Positions 11,103-38,928 of a stretch of DNA of 39,367 nucleotides are shown one piece after another. A program made the position numbers and the translations under genes. The notes below the pieces were generated by a model, which saw only the letters and a list, made by a program, of their open reading frames with translations, searched no databases and was not told the DNA's origin. Source of the DNA: a virus (lineage: Duplodnaviria > Caudoviricetes). The stretch lies in the IMG/VR virus record IMGVR_UViG_3300019874_000013, positions 1 to 39,367 of that record. The stretch is one strand, 5' to 3'. Position 1 is the stretch's first letter. Each line of letters begins with the position of its first letter.

Positions 11103-13885
11103 ATGACAGTATCATTAAATACTATGCCGTCGCAGATTCAGCAACGGTATAACCAAAAGCTCTTGAGTACTCCAGAGCGCAACTTGATCCACAATTTATT
11201 TGCGGTTCCTGTTGAGCTACCGGATAACCAAGGGTTTATTGATAGACAGTCTCGTTATGACAGACTAGATCTATTCCCAGTGCCTCTCGATGATGCACAA
11301 ACTAATCCTCCTTCTCAGCTATTGAATAGAGTGGATGTCGATAATTGCAGTCGACATATTAGTGATTATTATGCTTTAGCGGCGTAATTGTGCAGGGTTC
11401 GTGTCTATGCAACATATATTGTGTTGACCAGACAAGTAACCATCACTAACGAGGATAGAATTGTGTCCTCGATAAACCTAAGATGATTGACTTGGAAGCC
11501 CTCGCAGCTCGACTGGAGGGTAACAAGGGGCAAGTGAATATAAGGATTTAACTGGATGATCGCGAAACCGGGAATTAATAGAACGAAGCTCAAGGTAACA
11601 TTGATATCGAATATCATGTATTTCATGAGATACTTCTTTCTTTTGAAGCCTTCGATGAGGAGTGAATGTATTTCTCATTCTCATCATGATTTCGCATTGT
11701 CTTTTTTTAACAATCAAGTAGGGATAAATTTTTGGCATAAGAGAGTCAAGCGTAGAACCGGAAATCTGAGCATTATAAATAGTTCTCTCCTTAAGAGAGA
11801 CTCTAGTTTTTCGCTCTTGTTGGTTGTTCGTTGTTTGAGCTTTTTCCTTAACCCAATCCATCAAGTCTTTGTCAGTGTTGCTGATTTTGATATAGGTGTG
11901 ATAGTTAAGAAGATCATGGGTAGCTTTAGTGCGGAAGAGTCCGATGAAAAAGCACCCTTCGCCATCAATAATCCCTGCGAGGTAAGCAAGTTCTATATCT
12001 GTCATATAAACCTTTTGTTTAAGACAGTATAGTATACAGCTAATACTTATATTTGTACAGCCTGAACGACTAAGTTCTTGGGACGCGAAAGCGTATGCGA
12101 TAGTCTGAACTCCACGAATAAATAAAGGTGGAGAGGGAAGGCCGAAGAGCCATCCCCGCCTATGTAAAACAGATTTACATAGGTCATAAAAGTAACAGAT
12201 TGCCAGTCCTTAATAGCGCGGCCGCTCGTTTGGGCCAAGCAATGAGAGAAACTCAGGACGTTCTACAGCGCGATAACCTCGAAAGTACAGCTTCGGTGAT
12301 AAATTGCGTCGGTAAAAAATATACTGCCGACCTTAAATCTTCTCTGATTGACTTGGAACTCCTCGCCGCATAAGCGGACGGACAACAAGGCGGAACCCAG
12401 TTTACATGGGACCGTGAACGACTAAGTGAGAAGACTTCAACGTCCACTGAACATGGATCTCTTGAAGAAGCGATAGTCTGAACTCTATGGAAACATAGAG
12501 AGGGAGACCCGAAGAGGTTTCCCCGCCTAGGAAACTAGGTCATAAAGTAACAGATTGGGTGTTAACGGCGACTTGCCTACAGAAATGTCGATTAGCGATG
12601 TTGACGATGTTGTTACCGTTCTACAAGGTAACAGCGCAGAGTATATCACTAATATGATCGAAGCGACGAACCAGTTTTCGACTTCGGCCATCGGCGATTC
12701 TTATGGTTGCATGTTGACCACAAGAATGATCCCTGTGCTGAACAACATTGCTGGATTTACTCGTAAGCAGTTCTATCCAAATAGTACAACTCATACTCTT
12801 TCGTCAGAATGGGGTGGAGTTAATAACGTCCGCTTCTTTATTTCGGAGCAGGGTTCAGTTACACCTAATGCGTCTCTTAATGGTGCCGACATCGCTAACT
12901 GCTTTGTTGCTGCTAAAGAGTCGTATAAAGTCGTATGGCAGACCGGAGGTAAGGCTAAATTTATTTACTTGCCACCTGGGTTAAATGATTGGGCCCAGGA
13001 TAAATCTTCTCTGATTGACTTGGACCTCCTAGCTGCGTAAGCAGTGGAAGACAAGGGCGAAGATTAAATGGTAATATATCTTACCACAGGTTATAATAAA
13101 CACAAAAAGGATGTGTTTGTGGTAACTAGTAGGATATGTACCACATGTAACATTGAGAAGTCTTTCGATGAGTTTGGAAATTCAAAGAAAGGTAAATGGG
13201 GAAAAAGAGAGGTTTGCAAACCTTGCAAGCGTATTAAAGATAGAGAATACGAAAGGGCGAATCCCGACAAGATGACTGCTAAACATGATAGATGGGCAAA
13301 GAAAAATGAAGCTCATTTAGCAGCATACAGACATAAACGATATGAAAATAACCCTGAGCCTTACAAGGCCAGTTCAATAGAATATCGTAAGAAAAAGAAT
13401 AACGAGCCTGTGAAGAAGTATAAATATAAATACCCTCACAAAAAAAAGGCACATTTATATGTTGAATTAGCGGTCCATTATGGGCATCTGATTAGACCGG
13501 ATCGTTGTTCTAAATGTGGGATAGAATGTAAACCTCAAGGTCATCATCATGATTATGGCCTGCCTCTAGACGTTACATGGTTATGTCCAAAGTGTCATGG
13601 CTTTGAACATAGATTTAAACACGCTGAACGACTAAGTGAGAAGACCATTGTTGAAGACAGTGGAAGCGATAGTCTAGACTCTATGGAAACATAGAGAGGG
13701 AGATCCGAAGAGGTTTCCCCGCCATCGTGAAAAGGTGGTCAGTAGGTCTGCAAGGGGCTGAAAGTAATAGTTTTGACAATAATGACCCTTGCATGCTTCG
13801 GCACACAGCCGGCGCAAGCTTTTACCAGGGACAATGCATTACCAATGACCTATGGATGCAAAACTTACGCTCAACAGGCATCTAA
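11103..13885 (+). CDS. Major capsid protein (N4-gp56-like), spliced: join(11103..11342,11391..11456,12203..12313,12558..12981,13776..13885), 316 aa
   Basis: Exons total 951 nt in one open frame: ...LNRVDVD|CRVRVYATYIVLTRQVTITNED|PVLNSAAARLGQAMRETQD...NCVG|GVNGDLP...PPG(Y)|NNDPCMLR...STGI*. TNEDPVLN..A..LG and E.G.V.NVRF resemble N4-gp56-type capsids. Confidence 0.88.
11343..11390 (+). other. 48-nt coreless group-I-like mini-intron (insertion 1)
   Basis: Follows a U and ends in G. P1 is ATGTCGAT/GTCGACAT with U.G at the junction; P10 is TGCA/TGCA. Contains an in-frame stop. Confidence 0.7.
11457..12202 (+). mobile_element. Group I intron 2 (746 nt) with antisense LAGLIDADG ORF
   Basis: P1 CGAGGAT/GTCCTCG (U.G); P3 CCTAAGA/TCTTGGG; P7 GACTA (12068)/TAGTC (12101); terminal G at 12202. 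Confidence 0.92.
11478..12005 (-). CDS. LAGLIDADG homing endonuclease (single motif)
   Basis: LAYLAGIIDGEGC, ISNTD and IYPYLIVKKRQ; AAAAGG RBS. Confidence 0.92.
   Translation of the reverse strand: MTDIELAYLAGIIDGEGCFFIGLFRTKATHDLLNYHTYIKISNTDKDLMDWVKEKAQTTNNQQERKTRVSLKERTIYNAQISGSTLDSLMPKIYPYLIVKKRQCEIMMRMRNTFTPHRRLQKKEVSHEIHDIRYQCYLELRSINSRFRDHPVKSLYSLAPCYPPVELRGLPSQSS
12314..12557 (+). mobile_element. Group I intron 3 (244 nt, no ORF)
   Basis: P1 GTCGGT/GCCGAC (U.G); P3 TCTTCTC/GAGAAGA; P7 GACTA (12420)/TAGTC (12474); P9 CTCTATG-GAAA-CATAGAG; terminal G at 12557. Confidence 0.93.
12982..13775 (+). mobile_element. Group I intron 4 (794 nt) with HNH ORF
   Basis: P1 CCTGGGT/GCCCAGG (U.G); P7 GACTA (13630)/TAGTC (13670); P9 GAAA hairpin; terminal G at 13775; splicing creates a TAC codon. 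Confidence 0.92.
13068..13694 (+). CDS. Intron-encoded HNH-like (Zn-binding) endonuclease
   Basis: CTTC...CKPC N-terminus; RPDRCSKC...GHHHDYGLPLDVTWLCPKCH. Confidence 0.8.
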   Translation: MVIYLTTGYNKHKKDVFVVTSRICTTCNIEKSFDEFGNSKKGKWGKREVCKPCKRIKDREYERANPDKMTAKHDRWAKKNEAHLAAYRHKRYENNPEPYKASSIEYRKKKNNEPVKKYKYKYPHKKKAHLYVELAVHYGHLIRPDRCSKCGIECKPQGHHHDYGLPLDVTWLCPKCHGFEHRFKHAERLSEKTIVEDSGSDSLDSMET

Positions 13886-25425: not shown

Positions 25426-27165
25426 ATGGGCACAAGAATTCAAAAAGTATCTACGATCGGCAGCGGAAATGTAAATGTTTTCCCAGTGCCAATTGTAGCA
25501 CAAAGACCTCCTGCATCAACAGATGTCGATTATCCACTAGGTCAAATCTGGATTAATACTTCGGTTAGCCCTGGAGTATCTTATGAATTCTTGGATTCAG
25601 CTTTAGGTACTTGGTCTACAGGTGGAAATTCTGAGGCTACCACATCCTCATTCGGTATTGTTCAATTAGCAACTCTAGCAGAATTACAAGGTGGCACCGC
25701 ACCCGCTGGTGCTTATGTACCTACCGCAAACGATGTAGCTACAGTGATTGCCGGTGTTGTCGTTGGTGCTGTCCCTCCGGCTACCGTTGCTCAACAGGGC
25801 ATTGTTGAGCTCGCTACGAATGCGGAAGTAGTTTCGCCTTGGACATCAACTATCCCTAATACGGCAATTACACCAGCCAATATTCAAACCATGTTCGCGG
25901 CTCCTCCTCCTATTGGGGGAACAACTCCCGCAGCAGGTGCCTTTACTACGCTTGCCGCTTCTAGTACTTTAAGCGTTGTAGGCGCATCAACTATCGCCGC
26001 GTTAAGTGCTACATCAGGAGCTTTTAGTACAACGCTGGCGGTTACCGGCACTTCAACATTAGCCGCAGTTGGTGCAACAAACGGTACCTTCTCAGGAACA
26101 TTAGGCGTCACGGGCACTTCAACTATTGGCGTTCTTAGTGCAACTAATGGAACTTTCTCGGGTACATTAGGAGTTACAGGCACTTCGACATTAGGAGTAA
26201 TCGCGAGCGGTAACACAACTATCACAGGTACACTTGGCGTTTCGGGTCTTTCTTCCCTAGCCTCTGCAACATTCAGCTCAACAATCGTCGTTACAGGCCT
26301 ATCAACTCTAGCCGCTCTAACTCAAGTCGGCATAGCTAATATTAATGCTTCCGGTGCAGGAGTTACAACTATAGGAACGGGCGGAACTGGCGCTGTAAAT
26401 ATTGGTAACGCAACGGGTAATACTGCATTAACGGGTGCTTTAACAATCTCAACAACTTTGGGTGTTACCGGATTAACTACTCTCGCAGCTCATACCGCTG
26501 TAGGTACGGTTTTAATGAACGCTAGCGGTGCTGCAGCAACTACGATTGCCACTGGTGGTACTGGAACTTTAGCGTTAGGTAACGCAACGGGCAACACAGT
26601 TTTGACAGGTGCTTTGACAATTTCGACAACTTTAGGCGTGACAGGTCTAACCACATTAGCGGCTTTAACCGCCGTAGGAACTGTTAATATTAACGCCACG
26701 GGTGCAGGAGTAACGACTATCGGTACAGGTGGAACCGGAGCCGTTGCTATTGGTAATGCTACGGGCAACACCGCTGTTACTGGTTCTCTTACAGCATCGA
26801 CATCTCTAACCGCTACTCTGGGAAATATTACTGCCACAAACGGTAACTTAGTTCTTACCGCGGCCGGCAATAAAATGATTAGAACAAGCGTAGCGACCAC
26901 AATAACGGCTGGCGCGAACTCTACAGGTACCGTAACTCTAGTCGGCGGAACTGCAACCATCAGCACCACAGCTATCGCAACAGGATCACAAGTAAGAATT
27001 TGGAGACAAAGCGTAGGAGCAACGGGAGCGGCTGCACTTGGTGAATTGAGCGTGGGAACCATTAGCAACGGCGTATCTTTTGTTATCAATGCATGGCAAC
27101 AAGCAAACGCAACAGCTCTACAAGCTTCCGATGTTTCTGTCATTGGATGGGATATCGTCAACTAA
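25426..27165 (+). CDS. Tail fibre / spike protein with Gly-Thr-Ala repeats
   Basis: GIVQLAT/GIVELAT motifs; 22-aa repeats (TLGVTGTSTL) and about 60-aa repeats (IGTGGTGAVNIGNATGNT). Confidence 0.8.
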   Translation: MGTRIQKVSTIGSGNVNVFPVPIVAQRPPASTDVDYPLGQIWINTSVSPGVSYEFLDSALGTWSTGGNSEATTSSFGIVQLATLAELQGGTAPAGAYVPTANDVATVIAGVVVGAVPPATVAQQGIVELATNAEVVSPWTSTIPNTAITPANIQTMFAAPPPIGGTTPAAGAFTTLAASSTLSVVGASTIAALSATSGAFSTTLAVTGTSTLAAVGATNGTFSGTLGVTGTSTIGVLSATNGTFSGTLGVTGTSTLGVIASGNTTITGTLGVSGLSSLASATFSSTIVVTGLSTLAALTQVGIANINASGAGVTTIGTGGTGAVNIGNATGNTALTGALTISTTLGVTGLTTLAAHTAVGTVLMNASGAAATTIATGGTGTLALGNATGNTVLTGALTISTTLGVTGLTTLAALTAVGTVNINATGAGVTTIGTGGTGAVAIGNATGNTAVTGSLTASTSLTATLGNITATNGNLVLTAAGNKMIRTSVATTITAGANSTGTVTLVGGTATISTTAIATGSQVRIWRQSVGATGAAALGELSVGTISNGVSFVINAWQQANATALQASDVSVIGWDIVN

Positions 27166-29609: not shown

Positions 29610-30563
29610 ATGTCAAACAGACCACAATTGCTTTTGCCTATTTATGGCGGTACTGGACTCGCTACATATGCTATTGGCGACCTTATTTACGCTTCATCTA
29701 CCTCAGCCCTTACAAGGCTTGCGGTAGGCTCAAACACACAGATCCTAACCTTAGCTGGTGGAGTTCCTACATGGGCCGCTCCTGCCACGGCTGGAACTGT
29801 AACAAGCGTAACGGGCACAACGAATCGCATCACTTCCAGCGGAGGTGCAACCCCAGCTATAGACATATCTGCATCTTACGTTGGGCAGTCATCAATCACA
29901 ACACTCGGCACAATTTCAACGGGCGTTTGGTCGGGAACTGTTATATTAGTCGCTAAAGGAGGCACAGGCGTTGCAACCATCACAGGCCTTGTCTCGGGAA
30001 ATGGCACAGCTAACATGGTTGGAAGAACGATTACTGGAACAGCTAATCAAATTGCTGTAACAAATGGTAGCGGAGCTACTGCAAACCCTACACTAGCCTT
30101 TTCACCTATCATGGTGAACTCTACGCAGCCTTGTTTTTTTGCTAGGCAGTCGGGCACTGTAGCGAATGTGAGTGGTGACTCTACCGCCTACACATGCGTT
30201 TATGATGTATCTGTATACGATAATGGCTCTAATTACAACGCGACTACAGGGGTTTTCACGGCACCTGTTACAGGCAGATACCAATTCAATTGCTGCGTAA
30301 CCCTAGAACAGTTGGGTATTGCGCATACCACGACTACGCTTTCCTTTAGCAATATCGGAGTAGCTACATATACACAGCGATGTGGCGCTTTATTCCCAAT
30401 AGTGGGAGGAGATGGACTTGTTTCCATTACAGGGCAGATCATCATAGACTTGACAGCTGCTCAGACTTTCTCTACGATCCTTACCATATCAGGTGGCACG
30501 AAAACCGTAGACTTCTACGGGCAGAACGTAAGTTCATGGTTTAATGGTACCCTAGTTTGCTAA
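29610..30563 (+). CDS. Tail fibre with C1q-like C-terminal domain
   Basis: GGTG repeats; YDNGSNYNATTGVFTAPVTGRYQF...WFNGTLV. Confidence 0.8.
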   Translation: MSNRPQLLLPIYGGTGLATYAIGDLIYASSTSALTRLAVGSNTQILTLAGGVPTWAAPATAGTVTSVTGTTNRITSSGGATPAIDISASYVGQSSITTLGTISTGVWSGTVILVAKGGTGVATITGLVSGNGTANMVGRTITGTANQIAVTNGSGATANPTLAFSPIMVNSTQPCFFARQSGTVANVSGDSTAYTCVYDVSVYDNGSNYNATTGVFTAPVTGRYQFNCCVTLEQLGIAHTTTTLSFSNIGVATYTQRCGALFPIVGGDGLVSITGQIIIDLTAAQTFSTILTISGGTKTVDFYGQNVSSWFNGTLVC

Positions 30564-36676: not shown

Positions 36677-37537
36677 GTGCGACTAAGAATTCCTCTACCT
36701 AACTATACACAAGTTCCAAACGATCTTTTCGATCACTGGCTTCCCCACCTTAACGAGTCCGAACTAAAAGTTTTGCTCGTCGTCATTCGTCAAACGCTCG
36801 GCTATCACAAACAAGCCGACGTAATAAGTCATTCGCAGATACAAAAAAAGACTGGCCTCTCGAAGGCTAACTGCTTGATAGGGGTGAAGTCTCTCATCTC
36901 TAAAGGGGTCATCCGAAAAACCGTACATGGCGTTCTTGGTACAGAGCAAGTTTCCTATGAATTAATTTTCGCCGAAGAGCCAGCAATTCAGCCTATTGCC
37001 GTAGAGGAGGGGGGGGGTATTGTTCCGATACTGGGGGGGGTATCGCAACAATACCCACAAAAGAAAGAGACAAAAGAAAAAGAACAACAACAAAAGCCTT
37101 CGGCTGCTGCTGTTTTCTCTAAAGCGATTGAAGACAAGCTACAGGCTCTTGGGGTAACAAAGACTGAGCGTAAGAAATGGAATTACTCAGAAGCTCAAGT
37201 CTCTCAGGCATTTGCCGTGACAGGGGAGGTGCCAAGAGATAATCCTCTTAAGACTTTCCGCGCAGCGCTCAAAGATGGCTGGGAGCCGACGAAGCCTCGG
37301 CGCAAAAAAGGTCAGGTGGATATTGAAACTTGGGTGCGTGGAATCAATGCCAATCTGCCTAAAGACCTTCATGTGCGAATTGAAGGTGACGACGTTGTTT
37401 TCCTTGATAAAAGGTTTGATGGACATAAAAATATAATTGTTAAATCGAAATTACCTATTAATAATTTAAATGTTGATTTAAACAAAAGAGAGCAAATACA
37501 ATCTAACCTCAAACAAATAGTTCAGGAGAGACCATGA
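36677..37537 (+). CDS. Replication initiator (lambda O-like N-terminal domain)
   Basis: YTQVPNDLFD...ELKVLLVVIRQTLGYHK...ISHSQIQKKTGLS; followed by dnaB. Confidence 0.85.
   Translation: MRLRIPLPNYTQVPNDLFDHWLPHLNESELKVLLVVIRQTLGYHKQADVISHSQIQKKTGLSKANCLIGVKSLISKGVIRKTVHGVLGTEQVSYELIFAEEPAIQPIAVEEGGGIVPILGGVSQQYPQKKETKEKEQQQKPSAAAVFSKAIEDKLQALGVTKTERKKWNYSEAQVSQAFAVTGEVPRDNPLKTFRAALKDGWEPTKPRRKKGQVDIETWVRGINANLPKDLHVRIEGDDVVFLDKRFDGHKNIIVKSKLPINNLNVDLNKREQIQSNLKQIVQERP
37010..37055. repeat. Two tandem 23-bp iteron-like repeats (putative origin)
   Basis: GGGGGGGGTATtGttcCGATACt and GGGGGGGGTATcGcaaCAATACc, followed by an A-rich tract. Confidence 0.55.
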
Positions 37538-38928
37538 TAGATTTCACTAAGCTTTCCGACCCCGATTCCGAAGTTGTCTTGCTGGGTACTATGCTCTCGT
37601 CGATCAATGCGGTAAACAACGCGATGGACGTTCTTGGAGAGGGAGATTTCGTCAAAGCCGAGCACGTGAAGATATTCCGAGCTATGCAGAAGCTCTACAG
37701 GCTAGACCACGAGATCGAACCTTTCTCGGTAATCCGAGTTGTCGAGGAGGATAACAAGAACTTCGACGGCTTTTACGTCATCAACTTGCAGCAGTTCAAC
37801 ACTTCAGGCGAGGGGCTTTACCAGATCGAGAAGATCAAGGAGCTATCTCGTATGCGTCGGCTTTTGGTGGCTTTCCATGAGAATTGCGACATTGTCCAAA
37901 ACAAGAAGGGGACTTCCGAGGAGATCATTGCAAAGATCTGCAAGGACATGGACTCCATTGTCTCCGAAAAGTCGGCTCCCGAGAAGAATTACGACGACGT
38001 AATATGGCAAAACTTTAGAGATACCGGCGAGCCCTATTGGAAATACCTCGAAAAACGAATGGAAATGAGCCTTAGAGGCGAGATCGTGTTCGATGGTGTG
38101 TCTACCCACTACCCGAGGTTAGATAAGGCTTTAAATGGCCTAAATAACGGTCATTTCATTGTTGTCGGCGCAAGACCGGGAGTTGGAAAGACAACTTTCT
38201 TGATAAACCTCATTCGAAACGTCTGTCTTAAGCAGAAGCAGCCAGCCGCCTTTTTCAGCTTAGAGATGTCAACCGAGGATGTTTTTATCAACCTAACTTG
38301 CATAGATGCCGCAGTCCCAAGCAAGAGCGTAAGGGCCGCGACTATCGAGCCGGACGAGTTTAACCGTTTCATTGGAGCTGCCGAAAAGCTAAGAGGAGTG
38401 CCGCTTTACGTTGACGATCAGGGATCGCTCAGGATAAGCCAGATCATTGCTCGAGCTAAGCGCTACGTCTCTGTTTACGGGATCAAGGTGATTTTCGTTG
38501 ACTATCTCACCCTTGTCACGGGCGATGTGAGATATTCTAACAAACAAGAGGAGATTGCCGAGACTTCAAAAGCGTTGCGGGCTTTAGCTAAAAAGCTAAA
38601 CATTCCGATAATCTGCATTTGCCAGCTCAATCGGGATTCGGAGAAGGATCAGCGCATACCGCGCAAATCCGATTTGAGGGAGTCTGGGCAGATCGAGCAA
38701 GACGCTCATTCCATCCTAATGCTTCATAGGCCAGATATGAATGATCCACTTGGCAAGCCTGGCCTTATGCAAGTGCATATAGTCAAAAACCGTTTCGGCG
38801 AAGAGTGCGTGATAGATTTTTCTTTCCAGAAGGAATCGGGATTGATGGAAGAAATCGCGCCTATTCAATATTTTCACCCACCCGTGGAAGATTACCAGTC
38901 ACCCGAATTCGATAGGTATAATGTATGA
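37534..38928 (+). CDS. dnaB: Replicative DNA helicase
   Basis: GARPGVGKT, FSLEM, VDYL, QLNR, SDLRESGQIEQDA, KNRFG. Confidence 0.97.
   Translation: MIDFTKLSDPDSEVVLLGTMLSSINAVNNAMDVLGEGDFVKAEHVKIFRAMQKLYRLDHEIEPFSVIRVVEEDNKNFDGFYVINLQQFNTSGEGLYQIEKIKELSRMRRLLVAFHENCDIVQNKKGTSEEIIAKICKDMDSIVSEKSAPEKNYDDVIWQNFRDTGEPYWKYLEKRMEMSLRGEIVFDGVSTHYPRLDKALNGLNNGHFIVVGARPGVGKTTFLINLIRNVCLKQKQPAAFFSLEMSTEDVFINLTCIDAAVPSKSVRAATIEPDEFNRFIGAAEKLRGVPLYVDDQGSLRISQIIARAKRYVSVYGIKVIFVDYLTLVTGDVRYSNKQEEIAETSKALRALAKKLNIPIICICQLNRDSEKDQRIPRKSDLRESGQIEQDAHSILMLHRPDMNDPLGKPGLMQVHIVKNRFGEECVIDFSFQKESGLMEEIAPIQYFHPPVEDYQSPEFDRYNV

Follow-up and report, generated by a model that had tools for sequence, protein, structure and literature searches.

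Group I introns, such as the self-splicing intron of the phage T4 td gene, are taken to be autonomous, with one catalytic core serving one pair of splice sites; a coding gap of a different kind, about 50 nucleotides (nt) long and containing a stop codon and a stem-loop, is bypassed in T4 gene 60. Several introns can occupy one phage gene, as in Twort orf142, which holds three (cited in PMC11878797). Engineered trans excision-splicing ribozymes (PMC2532722) and spliceozymes (PMC4094466), in which the guide lies on the ribozyme, are presented as evidence that removal of a segment by a separate group I core is chemically possible. The 63–75-nt PaSSU introns of Phialophora, in fungal small-subunit ribosomal DNA, are described as having P1, P7, P10 and intron-exon pairing and are reported to self-splice (PMC3160393), and accounts exist of exon skipping between tandem group I introns (PMC10136302) and of a micro-exon in placozoan cox1 (PMC5436844). 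The locus analysed here is the major capsid protein gene of a 39,367-nt soil phage sequence (Caudoviricetes; IMG/VR record IMGVR_UViG_3300019874_000013, positions 1 to 39,367; hereafter the window). Homolog comparison, which places a 48-nt insert in this gene (11343..11390, plus strand, as are all features below unless noted) in a family of similar inserts, indicates that it is probably a coreless group-I-type satellite intron that would be spliced in cis by the core of the neighbouring intron 2, to which it is tethered.

The capsid gene is split by four inserts, at 11343-11390 (48 nt), 11457-12202, 12314-12557 and 12982-13775, and excision of all four yields a 316-amino-acid (aa) protein with 93% identity to an intronless homolog. 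Exon 1, encoding codons 1–80 of an N4-gp56-type major capsid protein, occupies 11103..11342, and exon 4 matches PHROG 1357, major head protein. The 48-nt insert breaks the capsid frame with a TAA at 11385-87, and the in-frame read ends in YYALAA-stop. The substrate signals ascribed to it in the first-pass annotation were recovered: a P1 helix (here P1', 11335..11357) in which exon bases 11335-42 pair with a guide at 11350-57 in eight of eight positions, with the U.G pair at the 5' splice site formed by U11342, the last base of exon 1, and G11350; a P10 guide (P10', 11346..11349) that abuts the U.G pair and matches the start of exon 2 (11391-94) in four of four pairs; a final G; and no P3-P8 core within the 48 nt. 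Removal of the insert restores the sequence VDVDCR, as the same annotation had proposed, and 118 of 120 capsid homologs have VDVDCR here with no extra codons, the remaining two having unrelated N-termini at the first insert site. The proposed 3' hairpin (11368..11388), which overlaps the codons of the YALAA-stop tag (stop 11385-87), does form in the window, but its role as a required splice signal did not survive comparison: of the 25 inserts at this site only 10, all of 47–59 nt, form it, and it was dropped as a signal. The first-pass annotation had also suggested looking for a full-length intron at this site in relatives, and none lies at codon 80|81 in any locus of the window's capsid family; the nearby full introns in that family are at codons 83, 88, 95–97 and 103.

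To place the insert among its relatives, 362 capsid loci drawn from collections of viral, metagenome and genome sequences were compared by spliced alignment; these cover 120 of approximately 170 matches in a metagenome scan and the best 80 of 160, 80 of 235 and 80 of 192 matches in protein scans. The window's own contig (L364), L385 89:43 (the 3' end of a full intron), exact-sequence duplicates, and non-capsid pattern matches (26 of 80 in the first pattern search and 16 of 58 in a held-out search) were left out. The comparison yields 75 distinct coreless inserts, which occupy five sites and are divided between two capsid families. In family A, that of the window, all 25 inserts lie at codon 80|81, in carriers whose exons are 64–96% alike. 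The capsid of family B is 31% identical to that of family A, and its 50 inserts lie at codons 88 (10), 92 (12), 104 (24) and 114 (4). Sixty-seven inserts measure 30–75 nt and the other eight 325–989 nt. The coreless inserts make up a widespread family of putative tiny introns that carry splice-site guides. Assembly error, or a dead gene, is a negligible possibility. The case for splicing is drawn from DNA, which leaves room for it, but a contig from another study's run spans 11315-11465 with zero differences, similar inserts occupy the same site in 24 further distinct loci, and across all 75 the exons are conserved and compensatory changes occur; this recurrence refutes it.

The lengths of these inserts bear on whether the ribosome might pass over the element, by bypass of the T4 gene 60 type or by readthrough of the stop. 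In the window the TGC codons at 11346 and 11391 are identical and 48 is divisible by three, as such models would prefer, but lengths at the same site include 38, 41, 47 and 59 nt, and 16 of the 25 inserts there shift the frame; overall 47 of the 75 have a length not divisible by three, and readthrough is thereby excluded. For bypass, the take-off codon equals the landing codon in only 9 of the 25, in none of them directly before the stop, junction-matched codons are found in 0 of the 67 short inserts, and some inserts carry open reading frames (ORFs) of 290 codons; the matching TGC in the window is a by-product of P10'. Both alternatives, which had been raised in the first-pass annotation, are considered very improbable.

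Splice-site signals are maintained throughout the family, P1' and P10' being kept at all five sites despite their differing sequences. In family A, boundaries taken before any refinement have U before the insert and G at its end in 21 of 21 loci with an insert, the U.G pair of P1' is present in 24 of 24 loci, and two P1' pairs covary, changing on both sides; all 11 of 11 carriers have GAT as exon codon 80, as against 63 of 94 non-carriers. P10' cells are paired in 96.9% of cases, with two pairs changed on both sides (UA in 7 loci, GC in 16–17), and P10' is present at the four family-B sites as well. The guide pairs with exon 2 at 3.9 of 4 positions versus 0.3 of 4 with exon 3 (22 loci), a preference by which exon skipping would be disfavoured. 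The last three bases of the insert vary (ATG 28, TTG 25, AAG 11 and TAG 6 of 75).

A catalytic core of their own was found in none of these elements: no P7-like pair is present in any of the 67 short inserts, and no core motif in the long inserts, which hold ORFs. Lacking the core, the inserts would not be members of the self-splicing group I family and would instead work like group I substrates. Autonomous splicing of the insert, in the manner claimed for the 67-nt PaSSU intron of Phialophora, is accordingly a very slim possibility; PaSSU-type introns are described as keeping P1, P10 and pairing with the 3' exon (PMC3160393), as the inserts do, but that description includes a P7, and here members shrink to 30 nt and none is found without a host. 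The same want of catalytic RNA would suit removal by a protein nuclease and ligase, with the helices serving as protein recognition sites or surviving as relics of a decayed intron. That explanation is improbable, as the signals kept at five sites of differing sequence (U.G, a P10 next to it and a final G) belong to group I chemistry, and as it leaves unexplained the strict dependence on one neighbouring ribozyme described below.

The connection to that ribozyme is an 8-base-pair helix, here termed the tether, which the earlier reading had overlooked and which abuts P1 of intron 2 and not that of introns 3 or 4. Its 5' strand lies within the insert (11359..11366), starting nine bases past the G of the U.G pair, and its 3' strand lies in exon 2 (11442..11449), in the exon bases directly 5' of P1 of the next full intron, so that most of the 66-nt exon 2 (11391..11456) is looped out. 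In the window all eight pairs (11359-66 with 11442-49) can form, with pair probabilities of 0.65–0.98, and the region 11331-11480 folds with z = -4.4, a value as low being reached by 0 of 200 shuffles. RNAalifold applied to 24 family-A loci (L114 being omitted owing to its extra intron) recovers P1', the tether and the host P1 unprompted, and exactly those. For these three helices together with P10', 98.7% of 624 cells pair, 29 of them changed on both sides; none of 500 shuffles reaches the observed covariation, and slid controls pair at 25–52%. Related sequences can outperform the shuffles of covariation tools without any structure, and more weight is therefore given to tests of register, exon swapping and host dependence.

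In the register test all 75 inserts were used, and at one register the mean number of Watson-Crick pairs to the nearest downstream full intron is 5.59 of 8; the 13 alternative registers give 1.2–3.1, and a set of 55 other downstream introns gives 2.15 at the best register. In the exon swap test the true score is 194 in family A versus a maximum of 188 in 20000 shuffles, and 274 in family B versus a maximum of 260 in 5000 shuffles. L114 and L130 have an extra 202-nt full intron at codon 88 in exon 2, inside the tether loop, and their satellites nonetheless pair best with the flank of the intron at 102. L129, L131, L138 and L158 each carry two satellites per gene, tethered to different host introns.

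Dependence on the tethered host is strict. Among 105 distinct protein-found family-A loci, 11 have both the insert and a host intron at codon 102|103, none has the insert alone, two have the host alone and 92 have neither; the insert is likewise missing from all 30 family-A loci that carry other full introns but no host at codon 102|103. These counts bear on a rival in which free excised introns, any of introns 2–4, splice the insert in trans and the tether only orders folding or delays the host. Engineered cores are described as excising inserts in trans through P1, P10 and a 3' G (PMC2532722), and introns 2, 3 and 4 share one core type, so that such a route is conceivable; it is nonetheless unlikely, given the 0 of 30 loci, a tether that always ends at the P1 of one host and switches with it, and the loss of stop tags (below), which is confined to hosts. 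The proposal in the first-pass annotation of a non-autonomous, group-I-type intron with a borrowed core therefore stands as the best reading of the comparative evidence, but in a narrower form: the donor would be intron 2 only, and the action in cis rather than freely in trans. Introns 3 and 4 were rejected as core donors, as the tether pairs with the flank of intron 2 and loci with other introns only have no insert.

The tether also follows the host. Held-out search patterns comprising only the insert guide and the next exon, and neither the tether nor the host, gave 58 matches, 42 of them in capsid genes, and all 42 have a downstream intron start, so that inserts lacking a downstream full intron number 0 of 11 and 0 of 42 in the two host-blind searches. 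The usual host is present in 29, and in 13 (11 distinct) the intron lies elsewhere; in these 13 the tether sequence switches to match the relocated host. The host P1 was picked automatically in 11 of the 13, and in these the pairing of the insert tail with the relocated flank exceeds that of 491 or more of 500 shuffles, compensatory variants including GGCGAGA/TCTCGCC, GGCTAGA/TCTAGCC and GGCGAGT/ACTCGCC. In family B the site-88 inserts are tethered either to an intron at codon 122 (four loci) or to introns at 97–101 (six), and the tether sequences of the two groups differ.

Intron 2, the inferred host ribozyme, occupies 11457..12202 and has fully paired helices P1 (11450-56/11465-71, 7/7), P3 (11477-83/12076-82, 7/7) and P7 (12068-72/12101-05, 5/5). 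Of 65 complete hosts, 55 have a canonical P7 that is paired, the variable position being occupied by five types of pair, and several of the remaining 10 show a variant P7 by eye. Host introns with a variant P7 include those of L107, L112, L114, L121, L132, L134 and L154, several of them paired by eye. Natural hosts in family A can be as short as 223 nt, as in L023, where the insert measures 38 nt. Neither of the other two full group I introns is the tethered host: intron 3 (12314..12557) and intron 4 (12982..13775), the latter with an endonuclease ORF at 13068-13694, each have an in-frame read to LLAA-stop. An Rfam search over the whole window returned no matches with E up to 1, all three full introns being missed; intron 3 scanned alone matches RF00028 with E 7e-5 and 26 bits, below the gathering score of 50. 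Full introns of this type are poorly covered by RF00028.

The order of elements, namely P1', a short linker, the tether, the host P1, ATAAA and P3, resembles the P1-J1/2-P2-P2.1-P3 order of the Tetrahymena intron. In the proposed mechanism P1' and the host P1 would share a single connection to P3 and dock one after the other, P1' first replacing the host P1 in the active site of the host. Guanosine would then open the 5' site of the satellite, P10' would align exon 2, and the terminal G of the satellite would enter the host G site, upon which exons 1 and 2 would be joined and the host would splice itself. Removal of the satellite would need to precede that of the host, since the core is lost with the spliced host. 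Ribosomes on an unspliced transcript would stop in the satellite and yield an AA-tagged fragment for proteolysis, which would explain the loss of the hosts' own tags, and the block as a whole would spread by homing.

Several observations count against splicing of the satellite by its tethered host and should be weighed with it. Sequence comparison demonstrates the helices and how they covary, the dependence on a host, the switching between hosts and the loss of tags; splicing would be a further step from these DNA data. The tether of L097 is weak (5 of 8 pairs), and in L114, L138, L347 and L350 the nearest intron gives 3–4 of 8 at the fixed register, the partner being a further intron or a shifted flank. 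Each varying pair has changed only about four to five times on the capsid tree. No conserved P9.0-type pairing was found in the inserts, and the base before the terminal G is U in no more than about 55 of 75. In family B the P1' counts are partly due to choosing the best P1 among boundary shifts. The host pick failed in 2 of the 13 relocated-host loci, which were read by eye, and the core motif is found in only 8 of the other 11. Finally, the insert, exon 2 and the host travel as one mobile block, and co-occurrence and covariation are partly linked inheritance. Linked transfer may account for part of the co-occurrence; it does not explain the switching of the tether with the host.

Candidates for spliced sequence were also considered. 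Of the 10 sequencing runs listed for the sequence, none is of RNA. The joined exon junctions of all 75 inserts (20 nt on each side) have no exact match across all loci compared. A 48-nt skip in run X3 was rejected as splicing, the run being of DNA type and the likeness of 85% pointing to insert-free relatives, and L321 was rejected as a spliced copy of L136, the two being only 70–79% alike.

The stop tags provide a further sign that satellite and host belong together. An in-frame AA-stop is found in 116 of 152 ordinary full introns, 60 of 73 satellites and 6 of 60 satellite-bearing hosts, counts that use intron frames from automated alignment, some of which are off; it is found in 0 of 6 alternative hosts and in 3 of 3 family-A hosts without a satellite, two of which are perhaps near-identical. 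The 152 full introns comprise introns 3 and 4 of the window and 150 in L002–L435. Intron 2 of the window has no such tag, and as background, among 3773 dipeptides that precede a stop in the window, 15 are AA. Satellite and host would accordingly behave as a single unit in which the tag has shifted upstream. The ssrA tag ends in LAA, and the AA-stop ends of the introns resemble an ssrA-like C-terminal degron, a candidate identification made from the encoded peptides. As most introns in these genes are tagged, the tags may be a general means of quality control for unspliced transcripts. The AA-stop of full introns often overlaps the conserved P4 strand (LIDLELLAA). No paper on intron-encoded AA tags was found in a literature search that covered mainly titles and few subscription journals.

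The block is scattered over the capsid tree, with 17 changes for 19 carriers compared with a shuffled mean of 17.8, which points to horizontal movement. A candidate driver of its homing is an endonuclease-like ORF inside intron 2 and antisense to it (11478..12005, minus strand), which matches PHROG 5046 with E 1e-21 and Pfam LAGLIDADG_1 with E 2e-4, below the cut-off; the PHROG family is labelled HNH, and the Pfam match is weakly LAGLIDADG. The 48-nt insert of the window carries no endonuclease ORF. Some family-B satellites at codon 104 do have ORFs of 288–296 aa in the P1' loop, with no core motif, and in two of two tested Pfam PF00961 (LAGLIDADG_1) is above the cut-off; the satellites at that codon with such an ORF are those of L120, L123, L140, L147, L160, L331, L444, L463, L474, L478, L483 and L484. 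The codon-104 satellite of L126 has a different ORF, of 74 aa, in its P1' loop.

Taken more broadly, satellite introns are probably a class of mobile elements that parasitise the ribozymes of other introns by means of splice-site guides, a terminal G and an exon tether beside the host P1; they could be re-targeted through about eight bases and may carry a homing endonuclease, and the host core would be a natural multi-substrate splicing machine on one transcript. If this is correct, a natural core splices not only itself but also another intron of the same RNA, so that two introns would be removed by one ribozyme, and introns without a core can persist and spread. The arrangement would be a small, RNA-only parallel to the division between the spliceosome and its passive introns, and the step from self-splicing to a shared splicing machine could be tested free of protein on a transcript of approximately 450 nt. 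An 8-base-pair tether abutting P1 would also furnish a design rule for multi-site ribozyme splicing. The reading would also point to introns of 30–60 nt in phage genes that escape covariance-model and gene-calling tools.

Elsewhere in the window, the 39-kilobase (kb) contig encodes a terminase and a P22-like portal, a tail-like protein with a K1-lyase C-terminal domain (25426-27165), a product with a weak C1q-like match (29610-30563), and a replication protein O beside a DnaB helicase (36677-38928). Among the other loci, L434 and L435 have a capsid gene with about 950 coding bases that holds six and seven inserts, respectively, and L439, on a 360-kb contig, has a 20-nt frame-breaking insertion at codon 68 of a capsid gene otherwise free of introns, perhaps a sequencing error. 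Seven matches from genome collections lie in bins assigned to mixed phyla, six of these being contigs no longer than 41 kb.

A literature search covering mainly titles, few subscription papers and no supplements turned up no description of natural coreless introns with a tether, and the terms 'degenerate', 'in trans' and 'ssrA' are all absent from PMC11878797. T4 gene 60 differs from the satellites in that the latter have group I signals and in that none of the 25 inserts at the window's site has matched codons right before the stop. The PaSSU introns, as described, share with them small size, P1 and P10, and pairing of the middle of the intron with the 3' exon, but they have a P7, self-splice, and reside in eukaryotic ribosomal RNA with no neighbouring host intron named in that description, whereas the satellites lack P7, would need a host and carry a stop tag. 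The tandem introns and the placozoan micro-exon, in the accounts cited, likewise place group I splice sites closely around a short exon; there both flanking introns are complete, whereas here a single core would serve and P10' would select inclusion of the exon. Phage group I introns of the RF00028 type have in common with the satellites a P1 with U.G, an abutting P10, a terminal G, homing-endonuclease ORFs in loops and residence in an essential phage gene, and differ in that a satellite of 30–75 nt has no P3-P9 core and is tethered through the exon to one neighbour, so that one core would serve two splice-site pairs and retain the exon that separates these. Trans excision-splicing ribozymes and spliceozymes, as their descriptions have it, also use a group I core to remove, through P1 and P10, a U-to-G segment that is not itself a ribozyme; those are laboratory constructs acting in trans, whereas in the satellites it is the excised element that bears the guide, the core would act from downstream on the same RNA, and the system is natural and mobile.

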